Positions 1 through 48,415 of a stretch of DNA of 48,415 nucleotides are shown here, piece after piece. The notes below the pieces were generated by a model. That model had not been told where the DNA came from and made no database searches. It worked only from the letters and a program-made list of their open reading frames with translations. Source of the stretch: a virus; IMG/VR virus record IMGVR_UViG_3300045988_036789, positions 1-48,415 of that record. The stretch is one strand, 5' to 3'. The translations under genes were made by a program, and so were the position numbers. Position 1 is the first letter of the stretch; each line of letters begins with the position of its first letter.

Positions 1-986
1 AGCGCACCAGCACCACCGCCGGAAGTGTCGTGGAAACACGAACCCCGGAAAGGCAGTCTTTCGCCGTTGTTTCTTGCCCAAAATCTACCCGGCGTTGTCT
101 GCGCACTGTCTGGGAATAATCCTGCTGCAATTAAAATCTGCGGAATACTTACGCCGCTTGCTGCCTTTACGTCCTTGAAAGGCTGGCTTGTATCGTTGCT
201 GTCGGTTGTCTGTGTTGTAACTGACGTGTTAATGCGCAGTGTTGCGTCACTGGCGCTGGTTCTGTCAATCTTTAATGTTCCAACTGTTCCCGGTGCAACA
301 AGTGTGCCGTCCGGCTTAATTGCTTTCCACTCTGTACTATTTGCACCCATGTTGCAATCAGACTTCATGGCGTTTCCGTATGGTATAATCTGGATTTCAC
401 CATCTACGCAGCGCAGACCAGATACCCACTCCCAGCAGTTGCCGCAAAGGTCAGCAATTCCAGCCGGGCTGCCGTCGTGGTTCCAAGTTACCGGACCAGA
501 ACCAGTTGCAGTTCTGCCGCCGCCGTGTGAACCATCAATATATGTGTTGATACCCTTTTCATAGCCCTTTTCATAGCTTCTGTCCCAGTTTGTGTTTCCA
601 CGGGGCGTGAAGCCATTTTTCATGCACCAAAGGTTGATTGCGGCAAATACGCCGTTCTGGTTAAGGTGCCAGCCCTCACCCTTTCTGCGGCATACTGCAA
701 GTGCTGTGTCAAAGTCAATGTATGCTTTAGGGTCTTTCAGTGCTAAAGAGTATGCACGGTCATTGACTACGGTGTTAATGTACTTAGACACCCAGATAAC
801 TTCTTTCTCTACCCCGTCAATTTTCCACCACGGCAATACTTCCTGTGTGCCGCCTGTGATTAAGTCGGAATATTTCATTTTTGGAATACCCACCATAATT
901 GACGGCATACCCAAATCATCAAACTTTACTGCATTGTTGCCGCCAAAGGAAGCAACCGCCATGCTTAAATCATCAAAATTAGACAT
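1..986 (-). CDS. DGR target protein 2 (variable FGE-sulfatase/C-type-lectin-fold protein), 5' 986 nt of a 1,053-nt CDS that continues into 48360..48294
   Basis: Own minus-strand translation is open from ATG at 986..984 (GGAGGT RBS at 1002..997) to position 1: MSNFDDLSMAVASFGG...CRRKGEGWHL...LCGNCWEWVSGL...LPFRGSCFHDTSGGGAGAL. It is a paralogue of 35529..36551. It is missing from the ORF track because it runs off the window edge. Confidence 0.85.
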   Translation of the reverse strand, partial: MSNFDDLSMAVASFGGNNAVKFDDLGMPSIMVGIPKMKYSDLITGGTQEVLPWWKIDGVEKEVIWVSKYINTVVNDRAYSLALKDPKAYIDFDTALAVCRRKGEGWHLNQNGVFAAINLWCMKNGFTPRGNTNWDRSYEKGYEKGINTYIDGSHGGGRTATGSGPVTWNHDGSPAGIADLCGNCWEWVSGLRCVDGEIQIIPYGNAMKSDCNMGANSTEWKAIKPDGTLVAPGTVGTLKIDRTSASDATLRINTSVTTQTTDSNDTSQPFKDVKAASGVSIPQILIAAGLFPDSAQTTPGRFWARNNGERLPFRGSCFHDTSGGGAGA

Positions 987-2343: not shown

Positions 2344-3345
2344 TTATAGCTTCCGGGTGCTTCCACACGGCTTGACGCCGTATGAATACCCCATTGCCTG
2401 CGTGTTGGTTCCCACGGTGCCGCCCTGTGTCTTCTGCACCGTGCTTCTTTCTGGGACGGTTCCTGTTGCCGGAACCGTGAAGCTGTATGCTTCCACCGTG
2501 TCAGCCATTGTGACTGCTGCCCCGTCTGTTTGCCCTCTGGTGTTCCTCTGCGGCTCTTCTCCGGCTCTTATTCGTCCGGCTGGTGTATTTGTATACCCAA
2601 ACACGTTCAATGCCGTGTCTGCGTCAATATGCGCCGCCTGCTGCGCAAATACAGTGCTTCTATATGGCACCGTGCCTGCTGCTGGTGCTGTGAATATAAA
2701 CCCGGCTGCTTCTGTACCCACAATGAATGTGTCCGCACCTATGCCGCCCCTTGTGTTCCTTTGCGGGTGTGTTCCGGCTTTTAATCTTCCGGTCATTGGT
2801 GTTTTATACTTGAAATACTCACCGTGGGTGTATATGACCCCGTGGACTTGTCCTTGATAGGTTAATTCGTCCATGTGTGCTGATAATCTCTTGTACATTT
2901 TCACCGCCCGGATAATAGCTGCATAATCTGCCGTGATTTTCTGGTTTGTCACGTCAAGAATAATATGAAAGTGTCCGGGTTCTCCCTCATACTGGAACCA
3001 CTCTTCAACCTCGCTTTCTGGAAATAAGCTGCCCAGTGCTGTTTCAATGGCGTATTTCGTACCCATCTTCTTATGAACCTTGACACTGTTTTTCACTAAA
3101 TCCCGTTTTGCTTCCAGCGGGTAATTGTAGTCGTACCAGTCAACGTGCATATCGTATGCCAGAATGTCCACCAGTTCTTCCGGCAGCTCGTCAAATCTGG
3201 AATAAATCAAAACTGTGTCCATTATCCCGGAAGTGTCCAGAAGTGCTGCTGCTGTGGCGTTTGCCAATGCAACCATTTTGTGGTCTTTTTTTAGTGCTTC
3301 TGGCAGGCAGTCTGAATAGTCGGCATTGTAAATTGTATTAGACAT
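2344..3345 (-). CDS. baseplate/tail protein I-like (P2 gpI family) with C-terminal ~72-aa tandem repeat
   Basis: N-terminal half (LPEALKKD...DILAYDMHVDWYD...KRDLVKNSVKVHKKMGTKYAIE) is gpI-like. Start MSNTIYN follows GGAGGT. It lies downstream of gpJ. Confidence 0.65.
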   Translation of the reverse strand: MSNTIYNADYSDCLPEALKKDHKMVALANATAAALLDTSGIMDTVLIYSRFDELPEELVDILAYDMHVDWYDYNYPLEAKRDLVKNSVKVHKKMGTKYAIETALGSLFPESEVEEWFQYEGEPGHFHIILDVTNQKITADYAAIIRAVKMYKRLSAHMDELTYQGQVHGVIYTHGEYFKYKTPMTGRLKAGTHPQRNTRGGIGADTFIVGTEAAGFIFTAPAAGTVPYRSTVFAQQAAHIDADTALNVFGYTNTPAGRIRAGEEPQRNTRGQTDGAAVTMADTVEAYSFTVPATGTVPERSTVQKTQGGTVGTNTQAMGYSYGVKPCGSTRKL

Positions 3346-4480
3346 TTTCAATACCTCCATTCAGAATGTTTTGATTTCCCAGTTTCGCAACCTTTATATC
3401 ATCAACCACCGCAAATGCTGGCTTTCTGACTTCAACACGTTTCACGCCTGCTTCCATCAGCTTTGCTGTAAGATATGACGGGTTAATGTCACGCCCCATC
3501 TTGCTTGTTTGCCACTCCACGTACTCTTCAACCGCCTGTTTTGCCGCCGCTGCAATTACCGTGGCGCTTGCTGCGTCCGGTTGTGGAATGTAAAAGGTCA
3601 CGTCAATGTCAAATGGTACTGTTTCCGGCACTGATACTGTCACTATATCTGTCAGCGGTCGAACGTCAGAAGCGTTCAGCGCTGTTTCAATTTCTTTCAG
3701 AACTGCTTCTGTTGCCTGCTGTCCTTTCTGCAAAAGCACCCGGACGTCTACCACGCAGGCTTCCGGGCTTGTCACTGCCACGTCTGCCACTGCTGGTGAC
3801 ACAGACTTTGTAAAATAGATATATCCGTTGATAGGTCCAGCCGTGCTGAAACTCTCCATACTCTCACGCATACGCTCATAATAGCTGGCGTCGTCCTCTT
3901 CTTCCGCTCCACCGCTTGTGGCTGTTATGTTCTCCGCTTTCTGGTAGTAGTCGTATAAGTCAACCAGTTCTTTGACCTGCCCCGCTGCCAGATTGTTTCC
4001 AACCTCTCCGGCAGTAGTACAAACGCCCTCAACGTCCCCGTATGTCTGCCCGGCTTTGATTTCCAGATTTTCTTTTGTTTCAAACAGAATTGCACCGTCA
4101 AAAGAAATTCTGGTGCCCGCAGGAATAATCACTGATTGTGCCTGCGCCTGTGATATGTAAAAGCGGAACATTGCGGACGCCGGACTTGCTGGCAATCTTT
4201 CCAAATCCTTGAATAATTCTGCCAAGCTGTCCAAGTATTCACCGTCCGCATATCGTGGCACGTTCTTTTTTGCTGTTTCATTGATTATGACACGCTGTTG
4301 CACAATGATATTTGCAACCCATGATATGAAAAGTCTTTCCGGTGACGCTGGGTACACTTTGTAGCGTTCACGCCCCGGCACCTGCTGCACAAAGTTTTCA
4401 TATAGCGCAATCAAGTTACTTTCTATGGTTTCCGTGTCCGTTTCCACAAAATCAACGTCCGGGTATTTTCTGTCACTCAT
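3338..4480 (-). CDS. baseplate J-like protein
   Basis: 380 aa, located between the gpW/gp25-like and gpI-like genes. Order and size match the P2 gpJ family. Confidence 0.75.
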   Translation of the reverse strand: MSDRKYPDVDFVETDTETIESNLIALYENFVQQVPGRERYKVYPASPERLFISWVANIIVQQRVIINETAKKNVPRYADGEYLDSLAELFKDLERLPASPASAMFRFYISQAQAQSVIIPAGTRISFDGAILFETKENLEIKAGQTYGDVEGVCTTAGEVGNNLAAGQVKELVDLYDYYQKAENITATSGGAEEEDDASYYERMRESMESFSTAGPINGYIYFTKSVSPAVADVAVTSPEACVVDVRVLLQKGQQATEAVLKEIETALNASDVRPLTDIVTVSVPETVPFDIDVTFYIPQPDAASATVIAAAAKQAVEEYVEWQTSKMGRDINPSYLTAKLMEAGVKRVEVRKPAFAVVDDIKVAKLGNQNILNGGIENV

Positions 4481-27699: not shown

Positions 27700-27739
27700 G
27701 TTTTATACCTCCGTTTGCTTTACTTCTTTAACTGTCTTT

Positions 27740-27768
27740 ATTATATACTTACGGAAGTATAAAGTCTA
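27740..27768 (-). promoter_or_regulatory. promoter module A (-35 TAGACT, 17 nt, -10 TATAAT) with embedded palindromic operator
   Basis: The spacer carries TATACTTCCGTAAGTATA (27744..27761). The module is near-identical to those at 41164..41192 and 42178..42206. Confidence 0.55.
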
Positions 27769-27835
27769 TTGACATTCTGCACAATCTTACGGAAGTATAT
27801 TTGTATATTTTGTATACTTCCGTAAGTATTTGTTA

Positions 27836-33507: not shown

Positions 33508-34244
33508 TCACCCCTCATTCTTCTTTCAATTCTTTCTTTCGCCTGCTGCACCTCTCTTGAATACTCTGTTTCTGTCAATCCTTTGTTCCATACGTGTTCA
33601 TAAGCACCAGTAACACCGTAGTTGTAGGCTGTCAGCACTTCTGCTTCTGTGTCGAACCTCTCTTGCAGTTCTGCCAGATAATCTACACCGACAAGCACGT
33701 TGAAATATGGATTTTCCATATTATCGACATTCAGCCTGCGCATACGCTCTTTGTGCCACTTCGGCAATACCTGCATATATCCGGTTGACCCCTCTTTGCA
33801 GCTTGCGTCCCATCTGTACCCGCTTTCTATCTCGATAATTGCCAGCACCAGCGTATACTCAACGCCATACTGCTTGCAGATTATGTATGTGTACTGCTGC
33901 ATACATTCCGGTAAATACCCGCCGTTGTCTGCGTAGTCCTCCGGCACTTCATAGCGTGTCCAGCCGTCCAGTGCTTCCCCGTCCCAGTCAAATGACATAA
34001 GGTTGAACGGGTACGCTTCCGCTTCTTCTGTGGTGCTTCCTGTCGGCTGTGTGGTCTGTACTGGTTCCGGTGTGTTCTTCGGCAGTGTGCTTGCTGTCGG
34101 CTTTACTGCCGCACCTACCACAGCCACGCACACAATGAATACCAGCACGCCTGCTGCAATGTAATTTCCGTATGCCTTAATTGCTCTTTTTATCCTCTTA
34201 CGCCTTAATATCCTGCGCAGCCTTGTTTTTCTTCCTGTTTCCAC
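33501..34244 (-). CDS. membrane-anchored lytic transglycosylase (SLT domain)
   Basis: N-terminal TM segment; AIIEIESGYRWDASCKEGSTGYMQV is the catalytic E-S ... GYMQ motif. Confidence 0.75.
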   Translation of the reverse strand: METGRKTRLRRILRRKRIKRAIKAYGNYIAAGVLVFIVCVAVVGAAVKPTASTLPKNTPEPVQTTQPTGSTTEEAEAYPFNLMSFDWDGEALDGWTRYEVPEDYADNGGYLPECMQQYTYIICKQYGVEYTLVLAIIEIESGYRWDASCKEGSTGYMQVLPKWHKERMRRLNVDNMENPYFNVLVGVDYLAELQERFDTEAEVLTAYNYGVTGAYEHVWNKGLTETEYSREVQQAKERIERRMRGEW

Positions 34245-35253
34245 TTCGTTTTCCTCCTTGTCCTGCCTTTTTTGGCTCTTTTTTCCACATTTTCAAGTAA
34301 ATATGCCACCCGGTCTGTTCATAAAAGACCGCTTCACATGACACAATGTTGTAATTGCTATATATCTTTCTGAACTCTTCCAGCCCTGCGTCCGGTGATT
34401 TTGCCAGCTGTTCCACTTTTCTTTTGCTGTACTTAAAATCATTGCACTTTTCTTCCGGTGCGTTCAGATTTCGGCTGTATTTCCAGTGGTTCTGGTCACG
34501 CTGCTGTTTCTCCCCGCTGTCCTCTCTGGTTGTTTCCGGGCGGTCAAGGTTTCTGCTGCTGGAATAGCGTTTCTTTCCCTGCGGGTCCTTGACAATATAC
34601 TTGCAAAGTCCCTCTATTCCGTTTTCATTCATTTGCAGGCGGTCTGCGTTCACCCAGCCCATCTGCTTTATACTGGCTCTGTATTCCGGGTCTTTTGTCT
34701 TTTTCCAGTTAATGCGGTCTTTTGTCCACATTAGTTCCACGTCGTCACGGTCAAGCCCGCCATTCATAATGATGTGGTGATGTATACGCTTTAGGCACTG
34801 CCCGTCCTTGCTGTATTTGTATTCTGTTACCAGTATGTATTTAAGGGGTTCAAGCCCCAGTTTATTTCTGCGGTACGCTATGCGGCGCAGGTAGTTTGTC
34901 ACTATCTTTTCTGCTTCTTCGACTGTTTCCGGCAGGTTCTCTGCGTCATAGGTGCATGACGTGTGCAGGTCCCCTATGTGGAAGTTGCCATTTCCCAGCT
35001 GCACCAGATACCGTTTGGCGTTCTTGTCGTTAAGGTCTTTTTGCTTTGGGGCATTGACTTTTCTTTTCTTACCCCTCTTCCCTCTGGCTGCCTGCTCTGC
35101 TGCTTCTGTTCGTGGTATTATGTCCACTTCTCTATAATTGGCACAGTCTGTCTTCTTCTCTCTGATAAACACCACTGCACTTCCTTTTCTGTCTGATACC
35201 TTTTTCAGCGTATAAGGGTACACCAGAAGTGGGGTGGTTCTATCCTCCATCAA
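34198..35253 (-). CDS. rolling-circle replication initiator (HUH endonuclease, P2 gpA-like role)
   Basis: LHTSCTYD (motif 1-like), RIHHHIIMNG (HUH), GLCKYIVKD (catalytic Tyr motif). Confidence 0.6.
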   Translation of the reverse strand: MMEDRTTPLLVYPYTLKKVSDRKGSAVVFIREKKTDCANYREVDIIPRTEAAEQAARGKRGKKRKVNAPKQKDLNDKNAKRYLVQLGNGNFHIGDLHTSCTYDAENLPETVEEAEKIVTNYLRRIAYRRNKLGLEPLKYILVTEYKYSKDGQCLKRIHHHIIMNGGLDRDDVELMWTKDRINWKKTKDPEYRASIKQMGWVNADRLQMNENGIEGLCKYIVKDPQGKKRYSSSRNLDRPETTREDSGEKQQRDQNHWKYSRNLNAPEEKCNDFKYSKRKVEQLAKSPDAGLEEFRKIYSNYNIVSCEAVFYEQTGWHIYLKMWKKEPKKAGQGGKRSGNRKKNKAAQDIKA

Positions 35254-35528: not shown

Positions 35529-36551
35529 TTATGCGTGTGCTTCCGCACCCGCTTTCAGTAAATCAGTTACCAGTTGCCAGCTTTCCAAAAACAAAGCGGA
35601 ACGGAACGAAGCGAAGTCGTGGACGCAAGAACGGGGGGAGCTCAAGCCCAGCGCACCAGCACCACCGTCGGAAGTGTAGCTGAAACACGAACCCCGGATA
35701 GGCACGGCTTCTTCAAGTTCGCTGTCTGCCCATATTCCGGCTGTTTCGTTCTTCCAATCGTGCGGTACAATTCCCAGCTTGTACGCAATTTCCGGCACGT
35801 CTTCCAACTCTTCCAGCTGCAATTCTGCAATGTGGCAGCCGTCCCAGTCCTTTTCTATCTTTTCTGCGGTTGACATAACCACGCCGCCGTCACTGCTGCC
35901 GTACAGCTTCAATGGCTTTCCGTTTATCTCTGCAACGGTCCAGTCCGGGGCTTCGTCTTTGTAGCCCTCCACTGCTGCGTCATTGTCCTTTGTGTACTCC
36001 ACAACGCCTTTGTGCAGGCGTAAGCCCGTTACAAATTCCCAGAAGTTGCCGCAGATACCGAACACGCCGCCTGCGGTTCCGTCATGTGACCATGTAAGCG
36101 GGTCACACCCGGTCAGTGTTCTTCCGGCGCTGTCGTATACAACGCCCTTTTCCTGCGGGTTGTCTGCATTGCTTCCGTGGTTCGTGTTGCCGCCTATCGT
36201 GTGCCCCAGTTCTTCCGCTTCATGTAGCAGATAGACAAATTCCGTGTTTGTCATAAGGTGCCAGCCCTCACCCTTTCTGGCGCAGGCTGCCGCCGCTTCA
36301 TCAAGTGTGATTGTGTGGCGTGGCTGCTGGTACGGCAGGGACACTGCAACGTCACCGCCCATGCTTTTCATTGTTGTGTTGTGGTACTGTGAAATCAGAA
36401 TTGCCGGAACAATCTTGTTTCTGATTTTGAACATTTCCGGCACGTCCTCCGGGTTGTACGTCCCCGGCTCCATGTAAAACATGGTCATGTAGTTTGGCAG
36501 TCCCAGTCTGTCTTTGACAATGACCGCTTTTTTCTTCACAAATTCTTTCAT
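35529..36551 (-). CDS. DGR target protein 1 (remote; FGE-sulfatase/C-type-lectin-fold variable protein)
   Basis: 340 aa; ARKGEGWHLMTNTEF...ICGNFWEFVTGL...PIRGSCFSYTSDGGAGALGLSSPRSCVHDFASFRSA. The C-terminus carries VR1. Confidence 0.9.
   Translation of the reverse strand: MKEFVKKKAVIVKDRLGLPNYMTMFYMEPGTYNPEDVPEMFKIRNKIVPAILISQYHNTTMKSMGGDVAVSLPYQQPRHTITLDEAAAACARKGEGWHLMTNTEFVYLLHEAEELGHTIGGNTNHGSNADNPQEKGVVYDSAGRTLTGCDPLTWSHDGTAGGVFGICGNFWEFVTGLRLHKGVVEYTKDNDAAVEGYKDEAPDWTVAEINGKPLKLYGSSDGGVVMSTAEKIEKDWDGCHIAELQLEELEDVPEIAYKLGIVPHDWKNETAGIWADSELEEAVPIRGSCFSYTSDGGAGALGLSSPRSCVHDFASFRSALFLESWQLVTDLLKAGAEAHA
35594..35707 (-). repeat. DGR variable repeat VR1
   Basis: 114-nt alignment to the TR has 16 mismatches. 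15 are at TR adenines and 1 is non-adenine (35611). Confidence 0.9.
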
Positions 36552-38465: not shown

Positions 38466-39836
38466 ATGAGGAATAAGAAAATTGCCCCGGCGCTTGTCCG
38501 GGTTGCTCTATATATAAGGGTTTCCGGTGAAGAACAAAAGATAAAAGGCTTGTCACTGGAAGCCCAGCAAGAACGGCTGGAAGCATACGCAAGGGAACGT
38601 GGCTGGGTCATTGTTGGGATTTATATTGACGCCGCAAAGACCGCCAGAAAGAACATTCACAAAAGAACTGAATTTCAACGCATGATGGACAGCGTGAAGC
38701 GTGATGAAGTGGACATTTTGCTTTTTGCCCGCCTTGACCGCTGGTTTCGTTCCGTTGCTGATTATTACAAAGTTATGGAAATATTGCAGGCGCACAACTG
38801 CGACTGGAAGACCACTGATGAAGAGTACGACACGACAACCGCAAACGGGCGTCTGTATATCAATGTGAAGCTGTCCATTGCGCAGAATGAAGCCGACATA
38901 GACGGTGAAAGAATAGACGTGGTGTTTGACAGCAAGATTGCGCACGGCACCGTTGTTTCCGGTTCTGCTCCGTTCGGTTTCCGTGTGAATGAAAAAAAGC
39001 GGCTGGAAGTCGTACCGGAAGACGCAGCCATTGTGCAAGACGCTTTTAATTATTTTGAAAACACAGTTTCCCAGCGGGCTACTGTTCGTTATATCCGGGA
39101 AACATACGGCGTGAACTGGTGTGACGCCACATTTCGGCGTATGCTGAAAGAAAAGCTGTACACTGGCGTGTATGACCGGGGCGGCAGATATAATGACCAA
39201 TTCTGCCCGGCAATCATAAGCAGACAGCAGTTTGACCGTGTGCAAGCGCTTCTGACACGCAATGTGCGTTCCGCTCCATCTGGCAAGGTTTATATTTTCA
39301 CTTCCATTCTGACTTGTGCTGAATGTGGGCACAAACTTGTTGGCTACAAATCCAGTGATTATTTTTATTACCGCTGCAACCAGCATTTCCAGCGTGGGCG
39401 CTGCTCTCATAATCATTCAGCCCGTGAAGACGTTGTGGAACAATGGCTGTTTGAACACTTAGGGGAAGAACTGGAACGCTACCAGCTTGAATGGGACGTG
39501 GAAGCAGCCAAAAAGAAAGCGTCCGTTGCCCGGACTGACAAAGCCGCACTGAAACGGAAGCTGACTAAATTAAAAGAACTGTATGTGAATGACCTTATCG
39601 ACATTGAAGACTATAAAAAGGACTATCAAATATATGTTTCTGCACTGAACCAGATACCGGAACCAGCGCAGGAAGCACCGCCAGACTTTGCAGCTGTGCG
39701 CAGGCTTCTTGATAATAGCTTTAGAACCATTTATGATACTTTGACCCGTGAAGAAAAACGCACGCTTTGGCGTTCGGTCATTAAAGAAATAAGAATTGAC
39801 AATGACCAGAATATCACGGGTGTTGTTTTTGGGTAG
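38466..39836 (+). CDS. int: large serine recombinase (integrase)
   Basis: Resolvase-type N-terminus ALYIRVSGEEQ...LSLEAQ, recombinase domain, Zn-ribbon CAECGHKL...YYRCN, C-terminal coiled coil. Confidence 0.9.
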   Translation: MRNKKIAPALVRVALYIRVSGEEQKIKGLSLEAQQERLEAYARERGWVIVGIYIDAAKTARKNIHKRTEFQRMMDSVKRDEVDILLFARLDRWFRSVADYYKVMEILQAHNCDWKTTDEEYDTTTANGRLYINVKLSIAQNEADIDGERIDVVFDSKIAHGTVVSGSAPFGFRVNEKKRLEVVPEDAAIVQDAFNYFENTVSQRATVRYIRETYGVNWCDATFRRMLKEKLYTGVYDRGGRYNDQFCPAIISRQQFDRVQALLTRNVRSAPSGKVYIFTSILTCAECGHKLVGYKSSDYFYYRCNQHFQRGRCSHNHSAREDVVEQWLFEHLGEELERYQLEWDVEAAKKKASVARTDKAALKRKLTKLKELYVNDLIDIEDYKKDYQIYVSALNQIPEPAQEAPPDFAAVRRLLDNSFRTIYDTLTREEKRTLWRSVIKEIRIDNDQNITGVVFG

Positions 39837-41105: not shown

Positions 41106-41163
41106 GTTTTCTCCTTTCCCTTGCCGTATTCGTTAAAGTGTTGTTGCTTCTTTAACTATCTTT

Positions 41164-41192
41164 ATTATATACTTACGGAAGTATAAAGTCAA
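41164..41192 (-). promoter_or_regulatory. promoter module C (TTGACT, 17 nt, TATAAT) with embedded palindromic operator
   Basis: The operator TATACTTACGGAAGTATA at 41168..41185 fills the spacer. Confidence 0.6.
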
Positions 41193-41197
41193 GCGTT

Positions 41198-42081: not shown

Positions 42082-42177
42082 CTCCTGTGGTTTTTAATCA
42101 GTATATCACACTTTGTTTTCTTACGGAAGTATACATTTTATACAATCTTACGGAAGTATATTTGTGTATTTTGCCGA

Positions 42178-42206
42178 TTGCTTTTATACTTCCGTAAGTA
42201 TATAAT
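42178..42206 (+). promoter_or_regulatory. promoter module B (TTGCTT, 17 nt, TATAAT) with embedded palindromic operator
   Basis: Operator TATACTTCCGTAAGTATA at 42185..42202. Two further half-sites upstream at 42120..42133 and 42147..42160. Confidence 0.6.
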
Positions 42207-42247
42207 AAAGACAGTTAAGGAAATCAAACACACGGAGGTCAAACGAT

Positions 42248-43858: not shown

Positions 43859-45277
43859 TTATGCAGGCAGCTTCAATGTCTGCCCAGCGTAAATGGTGTT
43901 ACTTGTAAGACCGTTCATGGTCTTAATTTCATTGTATCTGGAACCGTCGCCCAGCTGCTTTGCTGCGATTGCCCAAAGGCTGTCACCGCTCTTTACGGTG
44001 TATGTACGCACGCCGCTTCCCGGAATTTTGATTTTCTGCCCAACACTAATGACGTTAGGGTTTGCAATTCCGTTGTAGCTTGCTAACTTCTGGTATGTGG
44101 TGCCATACTTTGCAGCAATGCCAGAAAGTGTGTCACCTCTCTGCACGGTGTATACCTGTTCCCCGGCTGTTCCCTGTGCAGGCTGTGCGGGTGCCGCAGG
44201 CTTTGCAGGTTCGCTGGTTGCTTTCTTTGAGAAGTCCGGCACGCCATAACCTCTGATATAACGCCCGTTGACTTCCAGTGTTCTTCTTCCAACGGCATTG
44301 GACTTGTTGCCCTCAACAACTGTGATAGTGCTACCGTTGCAGCTTTCCACAACGCCCACATGGTCTGAACTGCCTGTGCAGTCACCAGCGCCGTTGTCGT
44401 CCCAGTCATAATAGATATAGTCGCCCGGTTCCGGCACCTTTGCGTCATTCTCGCACCAACGCCCCATCTGCTGCCACAACTTAATCTGACGGTCACAACT
44501 GCACTCCGTAGGGATAATGTCTGTGTAGCCTGCTTCAATGGCAATCTTTGAACCAAAGGTTGCACACCATGCGTCATGGTATGTCACTTTGTACCCCTGT
44601 GCTAACGGCTTGTGGTTGTTGTAGGCGTCAATGATTGCGTGGTGTGCTGCTGTACCCTCTTTCACTCCCACATACGCTGCCGCCCTTGCTGCAAATTTCT
44701 TTCTTACTTCTGATACATTCATATTGCTTGTACCTCCATTCTTTTTATTGCTAACGGCTCCGGCTGCGTACTGGTCATAGTATTTCTGCCCATATCCTGC
44801 ACGCTTTGTCTTCACCGTGTCGCTCTGGTCTGCCGGGCGCTCAAACTGTGTCAGCACTGCATTTGAAGCAGCAATGACGGTCTGTGCGCTCTTTAATACT
44901 GACAGTGTGGCTTTGTAGCCCTCTGTCAATTCTTTCATAAGGAACCCCAGCTGTGTTTCAAGGTCGCCAATAGACTTCCCGGCGGTTTTTGCATATTCCA
45001 GCAAAGCGGCTTTTCTGGTGTGGTATGTCCACTGCGCCAGCCCATAGCCTGCGCCGTCCCTTGCAAAGTTTCCATAGCTGCCGTTGTCCACGGCTGCTGT
45101 GTAGCTTGCGTCAGTGTGTCCCAGCTTCTTTTCATAGCTGTTCTGCAAGTTCTGCGGGTTCAGCCCGCTTTCTGCATATAAGTTCCCCATCAATCCGGCT
45201 GCCCCACAACTGGACAGCCCTTTTGATTTCAGAAAATTCCAAATCTTTTCTGGTGTTGTTTTTCCTATTAGTCCCAT
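43859..45277 (-). CDS. endolysin: lysozyme-like N-domain, CHAP domain and two LysM repeats
   Basis: [14 protein letters not shown] (phage-lysozyme2-like), [10 protein letters not shown]...SDHVGVVE (CHAP Cys/His), and two YTV(Q/K)(R/S)GD(T/S)L...G(Q)(K/T)(I/L)K(I/L)P LysM motifs. Confidence 0.85.
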
Positions 45278-45296: not shown

Positions 45297-45680
45297 CTAC
45301 TGCGTCATACTTGAAAAGTCAGACAGCGCGCCGGACAACTCCGGGTATGCAGCTTTGATTTTCAGCAGGTTTTCTGCCTTTGCTTTCCAGCAATAGAACG
45401 CTACTGCGGCAGCAGTTACCCCGCCAACGAACGTCAAAAGGACTGATAACTGGTAAAAATCCTTTGTGACCACTACCCACACGCCCACGGCAAATGCTAT
45501 GTAGTAAGTTGCCAGAATTGAAAAGATAATGATTTTTGTTGCGCTGGTCTTTCGCTCCGGGTGTTCCTGCAACTCTTCTTTTCTCTTCTTCCTGCGCTGT
45601 CTGAAATACTGCAAATTCCATAAAAAAAGCACTGCTAATGCCAGTGCAAATCCAATGATAAAAAATATTAAACTTTTCAT
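45297..45680 (-). CDS. three-TM membrane protein, holin candidate
   Basis: Hydrophobic segments FFIIGFALALAVLFLW, IIIFSILATYYIAFAVGVWVVV and VLLTFVGGVTAAAVAFYCW. Lies upstream of the endolysin. Confidence 0.5.
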   Translation of the reverse strand: MKSLIFFIIGFALALAVLFLWNLQYFRQRRKKRKEELQEHPERKTSATKIIIFSILATYYIAFAVGVWVVVTKDFYQLSVLLTFVGGVTAAAVAFYCWKAKAENLLKIKAAYPELSGALSDFSSMTQ

Positions 45681-45698
45681 ATTGCTGTTTTGTACCTC

Positions 45699-46148
45699 CT
45701 ATGGTTCTTTCGGCTTTGACAAAGCAAAATCATTTGTGCGCATACACTCTTTGTATATTTCCAGTATGTATTCATGCGCAACATCAACTTGCCCATTAGT
45801 CAACTTGCGGTCTTTGATGTACTTGTCATACTTTGCCAGTATGTCAATGATATGGTCGAACTCTTCTTTTGTATGGCGTCTGTGATTTATGCAACTGCTC
45901 TGAAATTCCAGAATTTCCATACGCCAGCTGTCAACCTTGTGGTCTGTAAAGTCTTTTTGCAGCTGGTCCAGTTGTTCTTTCATGTCGTGGTTCATAAGAT
46001 TTCCCAGCTGTTTAATCAACCAACGCACGGGCTGTACTTTAATTCCCGGCGTTATGTCAATAACAATCCCAATTCCCGCAAGCCATACAATAGCTTTCTG
46101 TACCATTTCCCAGACGTCCGCTGGGTTAAGCGTCTGTATTGCTTCCAC
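45699..46148 (-). CDS. hypothetical protein with N-terminal TM segment
   Basis: ORF track; lies between the RT gene and the lysis genes. Confidence 0.5.
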   Translation of the reverse strand: MEAIQTLNPADVWEMVQKAIVWLAGIGIVIDITPGIKVQPVRWLIKQLGNLMNHDMKEQLDQLQKDFTDHKVDSWRMEILEFQSSCINHRRHTKEEFDHIIDILAKYDKYIKDRKLTNGQVDVAHEYILEIYKECMRTNDFALSKPKEP

Positions 46149-47340
46149 TGTCCGTCACCTCCTTTTCTTCTGGCTGCTTGATATAATCATCAGTGCTGCC
46201 GTAATATCCGCAGAATAGACCGCATTTGCTGGCTGTCTTCTTCTCCGGTTCTGGATATGGCTTGCCCATTTCCTGCAAGTACAGTTCGTTTAGACTCTGG
46301 CGCATACCGTAGCTGTTGAAATGCTGTAATATGCCCCGATATGAAGCAACGGACCTATCCAGTGTATCTTTGTCAATCTCTCCTGCGTGATATGCTGCAA
46401 ACATATATTTCAATCTACGTTTCAGCTTCTTTGCCGTCTTCTTACGCAATTTTATGTGTGTTGACCAAATGCGGAAGCCTACAAACTCAATGCCCATGCT
46501 GGTTGGTCTTATGCAAGTTTTCTTGTTAAGCTGCAAATGCAGCTTGCTTCCCAGAAAGTCCGCAATTTTGTTCTTTATCTTTTCCAGATACTTTTTGTCT
46601 GGGTGTAAAATAATAATGTCGTCCATATAGCGTATGTAATAATGCAGGTGCAGTTTGTGTTTGCAGAACTGGTCAAGTTCATTTAAGTACAAATTTGCAA
46701 ACATTTGTGAAGTCAGATTGCCAATAGGCAGCCCAACTTCTCCCAGCAATTCATCAAACGCCACGTCGCCAATGTCGGCACCCAGCGGCAGACCAAAGTT
46801 TGTGTCTTCGCAGTTTATTATTACTGACAAGACGTGCAACAAATCTTCATCAGCAATCTTCTTCCGCAAAATACCCATCAATACTTCATGGTCTATCCGG
46901 TAAAAATACTTTGCAATATCCAGTTTTAAATAATAGAAACGCTGCGGCTTCCGGTCAGTCTGCTTCAACCAATCATGCAGGCGGTTGACTGCTTTGTGTG
47001 TTCCCCTGCCTACTCTGCAAGCGTAGCTGTCAGAAATGAACTGCTTTTCAAAATATGGGTTCAGCTGGCTATATATAGCGTGCTGCGCCACCCGGTCTTT
47101 GAAAGTGAGTGACATAATCATGCGCTTTTTCGGCTCATAAACATAAAATATGTTGTAGCGCCCCACGGTGTAGGTCTGCCAGATAAATTCATTCTGTAAT
47201 TCAATCAAGTTTTCTTCCAGCTTATCCGTGTACGCCATCACATCTGGTCTGTACCTCTTGCACTTTATCCCGGCTTTGTACGCATTGAAAAGATTTTCAA
47301 AGTCGTAAATCATAGGGAAAATGTTTTTGATTTTGTGCAA
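46126..47340 (-). CDS. DGR reverse transcriptase
   Basis: YIRYMDDIIIL (YxDD), LPIGNLTSQMFANLYL (DGR-type I/LGxxxSQ), N-terminus FENLFNAYKAGIKCKRYRPD. Start uncertain: TTG 47340 after GGAGGG, or ORF-track 47379, or ATG 47313. Confidence 0.9.
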   Translation of the reverse strand: MHKIKNIFPMIYDFENLFNAYKAGIKCKRYRPDVMAYTDKLEENLIELQNEFIWQTYTVGRYNIFYVYEPKKRMIMSLTFKDRVAQHAIYSQLNPYFEKQFISDSYACRVGRGTHKAVNRLHDWLKQTDRKPQRFYYLKLDIAKYFYRIDHEVLMGILRKKIADEDLLHVLSVIINCEDTNFGLPLGADIGDVAFDELLGEVGLPIGNLTSQMFANLYLNELDQFCKHKLHLHYYIRYMDDIIILHPDKKYLEKIKNKIADFLGSKLHLQLNKKTCIRPTSMGIEFVGFRIWSTHIKLRKKTAKKLKRRLKYMFAAYHAGEIDKDTLDRSVASYRGILQHFNSYGMRQSLNELYLQEMGKPYPEPEKKTASKCGLFCGYYGSTDDYIKQPEEKEVTDSGSNTDA

Positions 47341-47601
47341 TTCCCTTTTCCCTCCTGTTGTTAAAATTTCGCCGTACAAATCAAACTGCGGTTCTTCCGC
47401 AGCCCAAACGTGATATATACATTCAGTGCCAGTGTTTCCGGCTCTGACTTTCAGCCTGTGGCTTACTAACTATCTTTACGGCAATTCAATATTTTTCCTA
47501 CGGCTCCCGGCTGGCAGCCTTTGGAATGGAAATAAACCCCTTTAACCCAAATGCACTGGACGTGTCCACTTGTGGGCACGACTACGGGCAAATATGGGGT
47601 G

Positions 47602-47715
47602 AAGCGGAACGGAACGAAACGTTGTTGTTGACGTTAGAACGGGGGTTGTTCAAGTTCAGCGCACCAGCACCACCGTTGGAAGTGTTGTTGAAACTCGAAC
47701 CCCGGATAGGCACGG
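47602..47715 (-). repeat. DGR template repeat (TR)
   Basis: 114 nt. The coding-sense strand has 23 A, including 10 AAC codons. It aligns to VR1 and VR2 with adenine-specific mismatches. Confidence 0.9.
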
Positions 47716-47769
47716 CAAGTCCTCTATTAACGGCTTATTCCCATAATATAAAAAGCAGGTGTTACCCTG

Positions 47770-48213
47770 CTATTTACCATCTTTCTTCTTTGTGGTTTCA
47801 CTGCCGTTTATTGAGTTGAAATAACCGCCTATCATGCGTCCTATTTCATTTATTTTTCTTGACATTATTTCATACTTTTTCATTGGCAAACATGGTTTCT
47901 TGCTTCTTGTATATTCTGGGTCAGCTGCAAGCCTTACCAAATGTCTTAATGTATCAACTTCGTTGTCAAGTTCTCCCAGCGTCGTTTTCTTGTAATGTTT
48001 GTTTTCAAGCGCCACAACCAGACGCAGGACATCAAGCATTGAACTGTCAATTTTCTTTGCAAGTTCTCTTTTCGCTCTCGGAAATTCTTCAAGCTGTGGT
48101 CCTGCATATAATAACAATTCATATACTTTATTTTTCATTTTGAAGTCTTCCTGCGTCGCATTGTCCTGCACATTGTCCAGCTGTGGCATTTGCTCTGCTG
48201 TGTTTTCCGGCAT
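47770..48213 (-). CDS. avd: DGR accessory variability determinant (Avd-like)
   Basis: 147-aa basic helical protein (YELLLYAGPQLEEFPRAKRELAKKIDSSMLDVLRLVVALENK). Located between the target gene and the TR. Confidence 0.75.
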   Translation of the reverse strand: MPENTAEQMPQLDNVQDNATQEDFKMKNKVYELLLYAGPQLEEFPRAKRELAKKIDSSMLDVLRLVVALENKHYKKTTLGELDNEVDTLRHLVRLAADPEYTRSKKPCLPMKKYEIMSRKINEIGRMIGGYFNSINGSETTKKKDGK

Positions 48214-48245
48214 TTTTATTCCACCTTTGTTGTATTTTCAAAATA

Positions 48246-48267
48246 GGGGCTTACTGCCGTAAGCCCC
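48246..48267 (-). terminator. 9-bp-stem, 4-nt-loop hairpin downstream of VR2 (terminator and/or DGR target-recognition hairpin)
   Basis: GGGGCTTAC-tgcc-GTAAGCCCC, 37 nt past the VR2 3' end. On the minus strand it is followed by TATTTTG. Confidence 0.6.
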
Positions 48268-48293
48268 ACAGTATAACAGTTCCCAGTTTCCAG

Positions 48294-48415
48294 TTATTCC
48301 ACAAAAGCGGAACGGAACGAAACGTTGTAGTCGACGAAAGAACGGGGGTTGCGCAAGTGCAGCGCACCAGCACCACCGCCGGAAGTGTCGTGGAAACACG
48401 AACCCCGGAAAGGCA
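48294..48415 (-). CDS. 3' end of DGR target protein 2 (continues from 1..986 across the circular junction)
   Basis: Reading frame is continuous: ...GAGALHLRNPRSFVDYNVSFRSAFVE, stop TAA at 48296..48294. 48361..48415 duplicates 1..55. Confidence 0.85.
   Translation of the reverse strand, partial: PFRGSCFHDTSGGGAGALHLRNPRSFVDYNVSFRSAFVE
48305..48415 (-). repeat. DGR variable repeat VR2
   Basis: 111-nt alignment to the TR has 13 mismatches, all at TR adenines. Confidence 0.9.

Follow-up and report, generated by a model that had tools for sequence, protein, structure and literature searches.

The prototype diversity-generating retroelement (DGR) is that of Bordetella phage BPP-1 (mtd-avd-TR-brt), in which a target gene is followed by avd (accessory variability determinant), a template repeat (TR), a spacer, and a reverse transcriptase (RT) gene. 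Its variable repeat (VR) encodes the C-terminal part of a protein with a C-type-lectin fold, whose gene closes the tail module. The VR differs from the TR by adenine-specific mismatches, and a GC-rich hairpin, its tetraloop of the GRNA type, follows after 4 nt. Guo 2011 described the element expected downstream of a VR as a GC-rich hairpin or cruciform with a 4-nt GRNA loop (PMC3240598), and the signature of DGR RTs is [I/V/L]GxxxSQ (PMC7826257). At the RNA level, an avd:Sp 'cPRT Stop' duplex and an Avd-binding stem-loop have been described for BPP-1, and such elements were predicted in 207 other DGRs. Among the Rfam RT motifs, which adjoin RT genes, RT-10 lies between TR and brt in BPP-1, while RT-14 was not assigned to DGRs and it was only speculated that further RT motifs serve them (Weinberg et al. 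2017).

Relatives closer to the locus described here are known as well. Among deposited phages, the closest is Clostridium phage Saumur (ON453901, Enterocloster clostridioformis; RT region 76% identical in DNA, RT 74% in protein), which has the same module order of baseplate, hypothetical target, Avd, RT, two small ORFs, and endolysin; only 54% of the 2.7-kb query was aligned in a comparison limited to that query. The C. clostridioforme LM41 prophage phi3 has two phrog_2889 proteins (orf13 and orf71), Avd (orf73), and RT (orf76), i.e. the same two-target layout. Saumur and LM41 phi3 are both different phages from the present one, and in both, TR, VR, hairpins, and RNA are unannotated. The Thermus aquaticus variable protein TaqVP (PDB code: 5VF4) folds as an FGE-type C-type lectin, its VR occupying the last ~40 residues.

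In this study, the whole stretch of 48,415 nt in IMG/VR virus record IMGVR_UViG_3300045988_036789 (the window) was analysed. Overall, it appears with a probability of about 0.93 that the window holds an intact Avd-type DGR, carried by a temperate phage whose hosts are gut Clostridia, probably Lachnospiraceae. An earlier note had proposed a complete DGR (target, avd, TR, RT); each of these elements was found where that note had placed it or within a few bases, and every proposed test that was run came out for a DGR. The element belongs to a well-known kind, and closely related Enterocloster phages are already described; gut-phage DGRs are well catalogued, and the element itself teaches little new. 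Its order of target, avd, TR, spacer, and RT is that of BPP-1. It differs from BPP-1 in its host, a Gram-positive anaerobe, and in having a second target at a distance of 12 kb.

Locus and target proteins

The window is a circularly closed contig because bases 1-55 are identical to 48361-48415. Therefore, the coding sequence of target 2 runs on the minus strand from its ATG across base 56/48415 to its stop codon, and the reading 986..1 continuing 48360..48294 is confirmed with a product of 350 aa. The cassette is located between baseplate/tail genes and lysis genes, and baseplate genes, an endolysin, a serine integrase, and a replication initiator are found as neighbours. The features of the element are listed in Table 1.

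Table 1. Features of the retroelement and its two target genes in the window
Feature	Position	Strand	Remarks
Target gene 2, 5' part	1..986	-	ATG at 986; bases 1-55 duplicate 48361-48415
Target gene 2, 3' end	48294..48415	-	includes stop TAA 48296..48294
VR2, variable repeat	48305..48415	-	111 nt; encodes C-terminal 37 residues of target 2
ACTG array x4 after VR2	48269..48294	-	first bases 48294, 48287, 48280, 48272; spacing 7, 7, 8 nt
Hairpin after VR2	48246..48267	-	9-bp stem GGGGCTTAC/GTAAGCCCC, loop GGCA (GRNA type), then T-rich tail
avd, accessory variability determinant	47770..48213	-	147 aa; NCBIfam, Pfam, phrog_3206 'Avd protein of DGR'
Terminator-like hairpin	47754..47771	-	AGCAGG..CCTGCT + TTTTT; directly after avd stop; hairpin and T-run at the same place in relatives
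Long-range duplex, upstream strand	47732..47744	-	AUGGGAAUAAGCC; predicted; 13 bp with 47538..47526, brackets TR
TR, template repeat	47602..47716	-	115 nt against VR1, 111 nt against VR2; 23 adenines, 10 AAC codons
Structured spacer RNA	47438..47601	-	immediately 3' of TR; Rfam RT-14 match, covariation
DGR reverse transcriptase	46126..47340	-	404 aa, putative TTG start; Pfam RVT_1, phrog_1423 E 5e-139
VR1, second variable repeat	35594..35708	-	115 nt; ~12 kb from TR
VR1 flank	35533..35581	-	GCTG + three ACTG at heptad spacing (35581..35556), then hairpin 35552..35533
Target gene 1, remote second target	35529..36551	-	340 aa; phrog_2889 E 1e-61

Target 2 matches phrog_2889 (E 2e-119) and aligns over its full length with TaqVP (5vf4; E 1e-62, residues 5-349 against 11-384), with the VR at the equivalent C-terminal place. 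Target 1 is 34% identical to target 2 and matches TaqVP at E 8e-21. Judged by homology, both targets are C-type-lectin-fold DGR variable proteins with a C-terminal VR, as in BPP-1. TaqVP differs from the phage targets, whose fold is read from sequence homology, in the insert lengths between core elements; it is also chromosomal, apparently intracellular, monomeric, and outside a phage tail module. Target 2 is encoded at the end of the tail module, as is the BPP-1 target, and target 1 in the replication/lysogeny region. From its gene position and the analogy with Mtd, target 2 is most likely a receptor-binding protein. Two proteins of a common gut-phage lineage that are annotated as 'hypothetical' or 'sulfatase-like' can now be annotated as DGR-diversified binding proteins, one of which probably sets the host range.

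The 147-aa protein that the earlier note had called Avd-like scores 85 bits against the NCBIfam DivGenRetAVD equivalog (cut-off 80), which confirms it as Avd, and 72 bits against Pfam bAvd (cut-off 40). Both this protein and the RT are homologous to their BPP-1 counterparts.

Repeats and reverse transcriptase

TR (47712..47602) and VR2 (48415..48305) align without a gap over 111 nt. Realignment and a tally by TR base reproduced the 13 mismatches previously counted, 13/13 of them at TR adenines, and none of the other 88 positions is changed; with 23 adenines among 111 nt, the hypergeometric chance of such a placement is 3.8e-11. VR1 differs from TR by 16 mismatches, of which 15 are at adenines (chance 3e-12) and one is T>C (TR 47619 / VR1 35611), so that the mismatches are strictly adenine-specific, as had been claimed, in VR2 and not in VR1. 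The TR was proposed as 114 nt (47715..47602); its bases 47715..47713 have no match in VR2 but do align with VR1, and the repeat is now given as 115 nt (47716..47602).

The stop-free design proposed for the TR was borne out, together with its counts of adenines and AAC codons. All 23 adenines fall at codon positions 1 or 2, in the 10 AAC codons and in ATC, AGT, and ACT; therefore, a stop codon cannot arise. No A occurs in the last 20 nt, CGTTTCGTTCCGTTCCGCTT, which TR and VR2 share without a difference, as the earlier note stated. Its term 'IMH-like' should be toned down: these 20 nt are only the shared 3' end of the repeats, and the sequence that distinguishes VR from TR starts just past them, where the flanks become unrelated.

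The same pattern extends to relatives. A total of 125 RT relatives adjoin TR/VR pairs in which adenines account for 92-96% of the mismatched positions (822/856 in 69 viral loci and 700/757 in 56 genome loci), although only 21% of the TR is A. Among related contigs the TR is invariant or almost so while the VRs differ: 16 contigs share the VR2 flank yet differ in VR, and VR1 is hypervariable among seven. These counts bear on the possibility that the locus is not a DGR at all, its RT being of a group II intron, a retron, or a defence system, and its three repeats being ordinary paralogous or recombining copies, for example from gene conversion of a tail-fibre-tip cassette. Ordinary divergence or gene conversion cannot confine mismatches to the adenines of one invariant copy (chance 4e-11). 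The adenine pattern recurs in the 125 relatives, and an avd gene adjoins the RT of the window.

The RT itself offers that possibility some ground by name, since its best NCBIfam match is TIGR04416 (group II intron RT/maturase) and some database relatives are labelled 'retron-type' or 'RT G2'. However, the TIGR04416 score of 130.6 bits is far below the cut-off of 300, and the retron and Drt models fail as well (Retron St85 52.5 against 235, Drt3a 62.6 against 200, other retron/defence models lower). Similarity searches place the RT among those of DGRs: Bordetella phage bRT (8ub7, E 5.7e-50) is by far the best PDB relative, group II intron/retron-type RTs follow at 2.4e-18 or weaker, and tblastn against BPP-1 brt gives 34% identity (E 5e-44). 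The ORF and motifs noted earlier were recovered, namely YMDD and IGNLTSQ, which is of the IGxxxSQ type (PMC7826257) and not QGxxxSP; equivalents of bRT R74 and I181 are also present. When 45500..48415 was searched with Rfam at E values up to 1, group II RNA families gave no match; retron RNA was not found near the RT either, and the only match there is RT-14 in the spacer. With the family cut-offs failed and neither ribozyme nor msr/msd RNA found, assignment of the RT to group II introns, retrons, or defence systems (Drt, AbiA) was rejected, and an origin outside the DGRs is regarded as very improbable.

The RT of this DGR has no ATG at the predicted start. Since relatives and bRT align from residues 1-5, a start at TTG 47340 is plausible.

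Template RNA and VR flanks

The spacer between TR and RT is 261 nt, in agreement with the ~260 nt noted earlier. All model positions 1-144 of Rfam RT-14 (RF02921) align to 164 nt of it with 46.7 bits (E 2.6e-5), which is 1.4 short of the gathering score of 48.1, and 14 related loci likewise have no match at gathering. Therefore, the spacer is called RT-14-like and not a member of RT-14. The RT-14 structure is nevertheless well kept: across 24 relatives, paired cells make up 91.5%, and sliding the partners lowers this to 46-60%; the covariation score reaches 0.496, with slid controls no higher than 0.12, and 14/21 pairs have double changes. The predicted parts are a helix of nt 3-14 with 48-57, a 9-bp CAAG-tetraloop hairpin (47582..47559) whose loop is UACG in relatives and in which all eight counted pairs covary, the downstream strand of the long-range duplex (47538..47526), a stem followed by an A-run, and a hairpin with an AGUA/GAA internal loop.

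The long-range duplex shows compensatory changes, and 21/24 sequences pair best with their own partner (cognate mean -18.2 kcal/mol against -11.5 for non-cognate). A template:primer-like helix shows little covariation, with -8.8 kcal/mol for cognate and -8.0 for non-cognate means. The duplex appears analogous to the BPP-1 avd:Sp 'cPRT Stop', with the difference that its upstream strand lies inside avd in BPP-1 and here is intergenic, past the terminator-like hairpin. Pairing to sequence upstream of the TR is not part of the Rfam RT-14 model. The predicted spacer architecture as a whole resembles the BPP-1 DGR RNA, with RT-14 here in place of the RT-10 reported for BPP-1. The orphan RT-14 family can be interpreted as the scaffold on which the template RNA of this clade of DGRs is built, in parallel with the BPP-1 cryo-EM structure.

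The terminator-like hairpin and its T-run separate avd from the TR-proximal duplex strand, so that the gene arrangement does not fix where the template RNA begins or which promoter it uses. A search for a promoter of this RNA gave five promoter-like sites against 5.6 expected, none of them convincing.

What sets VR apart from TR is the flank: a CTG-heptad array and a GRNA hairpin follow each VR, and an RNA helix follows the TR. The hairpin noted earlier between target and avd was confirmed with its 9 bp at 48267..48246; that of VR1 has an 8-bp stem with one mismatch and the loop GGAA. Both are hairpins of the kind described by Guo 2011, at distances from the VR (37 nt for VR2 and 41 nt for VR1) slightly over the published 4-34 bp (PMC3240598) and longer than the 4 nt of BPP-1. 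In relatives, the loop is G[AG]NA in 71/73 cases with 42 different stem sequences. The VR2 hairpin is a candidate DGR target-recognition hairpin and may also act as a terminator.

Between VR and hairpin, four (A/T)CTG motifs spaced by 7-8 nt occur throughout the clade, a pattern that is possibly new.

Within the window the array is confined to the two VR flanks and absent from the TR flank, and at least three motifs are kept in 62/69 distinct VR flanks of the clade. The VR-hairpin interval of BPP-1 is not known to hold a CTG heptad array. Conversely, a BPP-1-type IMH/IMH* pair, i.e. a (GC)14 stretch and near-identical 21-mers, is absent at the VR and TR 3' ends here; this pair is a feature of BPP-1 and is not required for DGR membership. 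The array could be bound by an RT-Avd-RNA particle, or by a host factor guiding the integration of cDNA. How target sites are recognised and cDNA is integrated is poorly understood, and the array offers a candidate for this step that is concrete and can be mutated. The broader proposal, that the array is an undescribed target-recognition determinant (an IMH equivalent) for a large clade of Bacillota-phage DGRs with RT-14 as its template-RNA scaffold, is tentative and perhaps somewhat doubtful.

Possible mechanism and recent diversification

By analogy with BPP-1, transcription, priming chemistry, retrohoming, and the receptor-binding role can be potentially described as follows. An RNA spanning the avd-TR intergenic segment, the TR, and the structured spacer would be transcribed and would fold around an RT-Avd complex. 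The tetraloop hairpin just past the TR is the likely Avd-binding element, and the helix that starts exactly at the end of the TR/VR homology may position the priming site. The RT would then copy the TR to cDNA, faithfully at U, C, and G and with misincorporation opposite adenines, and the cDNA would replace the homologous 111-115 nt at the 3' ends of the two target genes. The target site may be marked by the shared A-free 3' end, the VR-specific flank, and the GC-rich GRNA-loop hairpin. With 23 adenines, ~3.7e13 protein variants per target could be reached without stop codons, and the variable residues would form the ligand-binding face of the C-type-lectin-fold protein. Since target 2 is most likely a receptor-binding protein, the element may switch host tropism.

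From comparison with its relatives, we infer that this copy is active. The number of substituted adenines, from which activity had been argued earlier, is weak on its own; VR differences between contigs at the same TR are stronger. The locus might instead be a real DGR by descent whose present copy is inactive, the TR/VR differences being historical and the present VRs fixed alleles. The non-adenine mismatch in VR1, the hairpin between avd and TR with no clear promoter found, and the non-ATG start of the RT would agree with such a history. On the other hand, all ORFs are intact with catalytic and signature residues present, the cis elements at both RNA and DNA level are undamaged and agree with the consensus of the clade, and non-adenine decay is minimal, as seen in VR2. 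Genomes with 99.8%-identical flanks also carry different VRs, with almost all of the differences in adenine columns. An inactive copy is thus considered quite unlikely, and an intact DGR remains the preferred reading.

Among contigs that carry the exact TR of the window, with 98-99.8% identical flanks, 22/23 adenine columns vary against 2/88 non-adenine columns. By this evidence the lineage has diversified very recently, because near-identical contigs (99.8% flanks) carry different VRs: contig L037 is 99.8% identical to the window over 400 nt upstream and over the 592-nt VR-to-TR interval, and differs from it at 15/111 VR positions.

Anatomy of the retroelement

The first 55 bases of the window (1-55) are identical to its last 55 (48361-48415); the assembly is therefore a closed circle, and its true length is 48,360 bp. 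Target gene 2 and its variable repeat (VR2) cross the closure junction. The template repeat (TR) and VR2 align without gaps over 111 nt, and all 13 mismatches fall on TR adenines, of which the aligned stretch holds 23 (chance, 3.8e-11). The earlier note had called the exchange strictly adenine-specific, which holds for VR2 but not for a second repeat, VR1, where 15 of 16 mismatches are at adenines and the remaining one is T>C. The TR length of 114 nt stated there is corrected to 115 nt when measured against VR1 or 111 nt against VR2. In the target frame the TR reads ..PIRGSSFNNTSNGGAGALNLNNPRSNVNNNVSFRSA, with ten AAC codons and all of its adenines at codon position 1 or 2; therefore, stop codons cannot be generated, in agreement with the stop-free design proposed before. 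Positions of the features are collected in the table.

Features of the retroelement and its surroundings in the window
Feature	Position	Strand	Remarks
Target 2 ORF	986 to 48296..48294	minus	350 aa; from ATG across the junction to the stop codon
VR2	48415..48305	minus	last 111 nt repeat, at target 2 3' end; gapless alignment to TR 47712..47602
Target 1 ORF	36551..35529	minus	second ORF
VR1	35708..35594	minus	second repeat, at target 1 3' end
VR2 hairpin	48267..48246	minus	stem GGGGCTTAC/GTAAGCCCC, loop GGCA; 37 nt after VR2, GC-rich
VR1 hairpin	35552..35533	minus	stem GCGGGTGC/GCACACGC, loop GGAA; 41 nt after VR1, GC-rich
CTG arrays	48269-48294 and 35556-35581	minus	four (A/T)CTG motifs, spacing 7, 7, 8 nt; each between VR and hairpin
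Predicted 13-bp duplex	47744..47732 and 47538..47526	minus	AUGGGAAUAAGCC (upstream of TR) with GGUUUAUUUCCAU (spacer); compensatory changes
Terminator-like hairpin	47754-47771	minus	with T-run
Spacer 3' hairpin	47460-47480 region	minus	
149-aa ORF	45699-46148	minus	GTG start
Endolysin	43859..45277		
Baseplate genes	2344..3360, 3338..4480		
Replication initiator	34198..35253		
Serine integrase	38466..39836		
Direct repeats	27720-27812, 41144-41193, 42113-42210		palindromic core TACTTACGGAAGTA

The accessory variability determinant (Avd) ORF, the 261-nt spacer between TR and reverse transcriptase (RT), the RT ORF with its YMDD and IGNLTSQ motifs, and the hairpin downstream of the target all lie where the earlier note had placed them. 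Avd scores above the cut-off of the curated NCBIfam DGR Avd equivalog (85 bits vs 80) and passes Pfam bAvd; since a sequence search of solved structures gave no match, its family assignment rests on profile models. The RT matches Pfam RVT_1 and phrog_1423, and its best solved relative by far is the 328-aa 'Reverse transcriptase' 8ub7 with eight sister entries (E 5.7e-50), whereas RT structures of group II introns and retron type reach only E 2.4e-18 or weaker. By its chain length and molecule name, 8ub7 is taken to be the Bordetella phage RT (bRT); a literature search found no paper for PDB code 8UB7. The identification also draws on tblastn, which independently recovered the annotated brt gene of Bordetella phage BPP-1 (34% identity, E 5e-44). 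In the alignment with bRT, the catalytic aspartates are present, IGNLTSQ stands opposite IGSLTSQ, and an arginine and an isoleucine stand opposite R74 and I181, the residues that promote adenine mutagenesis; [I/V/L]GxxxSQ is the DGR signature, replacing QGxxxSP (PMC7826257). The RT falls far under every cut-off of the NCBIfam group II, retron, Drt and AbiA RT models. By similarity search and signature motif it is therefore placed with the diversity-generating retroelement (DGR) enzymes, as had been proposed, and not with group II or retron RTs.

Along its full length, target 2 shows homology to TaqVP (5vf4; E 1e-62), the Thermus aquaticus DGR variable protein, which has an FGE-type C-type-lectin fold with the VR in its last ~40 residues (bioRxiv 10.1101/432187). 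Target 1, which shares 34% identity with target 2, matches TaqVP as well, and phrog_2889 includes both. Pfam gave only a sub-threshold FGE-sulfatase match for target 2 and none for target 1; what is known of the targets came instead from the PDB search and PHROGs. The original DGR observation is confirmed and its interpretation supported. The window comes from a temperate phage of gut Clostridia and carries a complete Avd-type DGR, whose single TR has two targets. It is of a well-known kind, with close relatives already in databases.

Genomic setting and diversification

Baseplate genes and three small conserved ORFs precede target 2, and two small ORFs followed by an endolysin gene come after the RT. 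The first of these two, of 149 aa, has a hydrophobic N-terminal segment and shares 23 nt with the 3' end of the RT gene; the second is a 127-aa membrane-like ORF. Both probably have to do with lysis and are unlikely to be DGR accessory genes. Target 1 adjoins the replication-initiator gene near an XRE-type regulator and the serine integrase; it is 12 kb from the TR, in the replication/lysogeny region and not in the tail module. The closest deposited phage, Clostridium phage Saumur (Enterocloster clostridioformis), shares the module order of the window, has an RT 74% identical to that described here, and carries two hypothetical ORFs between RT and endolysin. The two-target layout is also that of prophage phi3 of C. 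clostridioforme LM41, for which two phrog_2889 proteins (orf13, orf71), Avd and RT are listed and the targets are read as 'sulfatase enzyme / host metabolism' (PMC11318856). Elsewhere in the window, direct repeats of 29-47 nt, up to 96% identical and with several copies clustered near 42.1 kb, look like operator or regulatory sites unrelated to the DGR.

Relatives of the RT are encoded by 246 IMG/VR contigs and 66 GTDB genome contigs, the latter mostly from Lachnospiraceae and other Clostridia; these relatives point to a host in Lachnospiraceae/Clostridia. No GTDB genome matched an exact 33-mer of TR/spacer. When TR/VR pairs upstream of the RT were tallied across the clade, 822 of 856 mismatches (96.0%) at 69 viral loci and 700 of 757 (92.5%) at 56 genome loci were at TR adenines, although adenine makes up only 21% of the TR in both sets. 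The exact VR2 3' flank is common to 16 contigs, and those whose locus also contains the TR, counted with the two VRs of the window, have 191 of 198 mismatches at A. Among contigs with the exact TR of the window, 22 of 23 adenine columns vary, compared with 2 among the 88 remaining ones. Contig L037 matches the window at 99.8% in the 592-nt VR-to-TR interval and in 400 nt on the upstream side of the VR, yet differs at 15 of 111 VR positions, and VR1-type repeats are hypervariable in seven contigs. Given the near-identical flanks, differing VR2 and hypervariable VR1, both targets appear to be diversified over short times in this lineage. The intact parts suggest that this copy is itself active.

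Hairpins and the CTG array downstream of the variable repeats

Retrohoming of BPP-1 requires hairpins of the kind found after both VRs, and those of phage DGRs are conserved, with GC-rich stems of 7-10 bp and GRNA loops (Guo et al. 2011, PMC3240598). Among 73 distinct VR flanks of relatives, 71 have a G[AG]NA loop, on 42 different stem sequences; thus the structure is kept and not the sequence.

Between each VR and its hairpin lies an array of CTG motifs. Exactly four motifs are found in 49 of 69 distinct VR-hairpin intervals and at least three in 62, whereas shuffled intervals have a mean of 0.21 and never reach four. Within the 48-kb genome the array is confined to the two VR flanks; the TR flank, spacer and avd lack it. 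It is kept across RT relatives (L018-L163) down to about 45% identity. Since it is non-coding past the target 2 stop codon but coding in target 1, and three does not divide its period, it would act at the nucleic-acid level. No partner, either complementary or a same-sense array, was found in the spacer or avd of the DGR RNA. The last 20 nt of the repeat had been described as IMH-like; their being A-free and common to TR and VR2 is confirmed by alignment, but the VR-specific information sits in the CTG array and hairpin and not in this 20-mer. A literature search on CTG arrays in DGRs returned nothing relevant, though it was a weak search and a prior description is possible; this conserved, VR-specific heptad array merits a specialist's look.

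The template RNA

The 164 nt directly 3' of the TR match the whole Rfam RT-14 model (RF02921) with 46.7 bits against a gathering threshold of 48.1 (E 2.6e-5), and at that threshold no Rfam match was obtained for 14 related loci. RT-1 to RT-19 are motifs adjoining RT genes; RT-10 was located in BPP-1, between the TR and brt, and others were speculated to serve DGRs (Weinberg et al. 2017, PMC5737381). When 24 diverse spacers of RT relatives were aligned, pairing in the helices reached 91.5%, compared with 46-60% for slid partners. The covariation score came to 0.496 (no more than 0.12 in slid controls), and 14 of 21 pairs have double changes.

The architecture was compared with that in the BPP-1 RNP structure paper (bioRxiv 10.1101/2023.10.23.563531). 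A predicted 9-bp stem just 3' of the TR, with a tetraloop (CAAG in the window, UACG in relatives), resembles the 'Avd-binding stem-loop'. The predicted 13-bp duplex bracketing the TR resembles the 'cPRT Stop' duplex (13 bp on average) and is followed, as in BPP-1, by a covarying stem and then an adenosine run. Its cognate partners average -18.2 kcal/mol, compared with -11.5 for non-cognate ones, and the own partner is the best pairing in 21 of 24 sequences. RNAalifold offered a local GGGG/UUCC hairpin, which was rejected for the long-range duplex between the spacer and the segment upstream of the TR, since the latter duplex covaries. Another predicted helix (spacer nt 3-14 with 48-57) starts exactly at the end of TR/VR homology, the position of the BPP-1 template:primer duplex; it shows little covariation and is weakly supported because the energy test did not discriminate (cognate -8.8, non-cognate -8.0). 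A reading of Rfam RT-14 as a BPP-1-like DGR RNA scaffold would be worth a specialist's look.

No convincing promoter for the TR RNA was found. The terminator-like hairpin directly follows the avd stop codon and lies just ahead of the first strand of the duplex that brackets the TR; in relatives, too, this place holds a hairpin and T-run. In the 3' hairpin of the spacer, a nearly invariant UAGUA stands opposite GAA(A), which we take to resemble an internal loop of loop-E / sarcin-ricin type, and which could be a protein-binding site.
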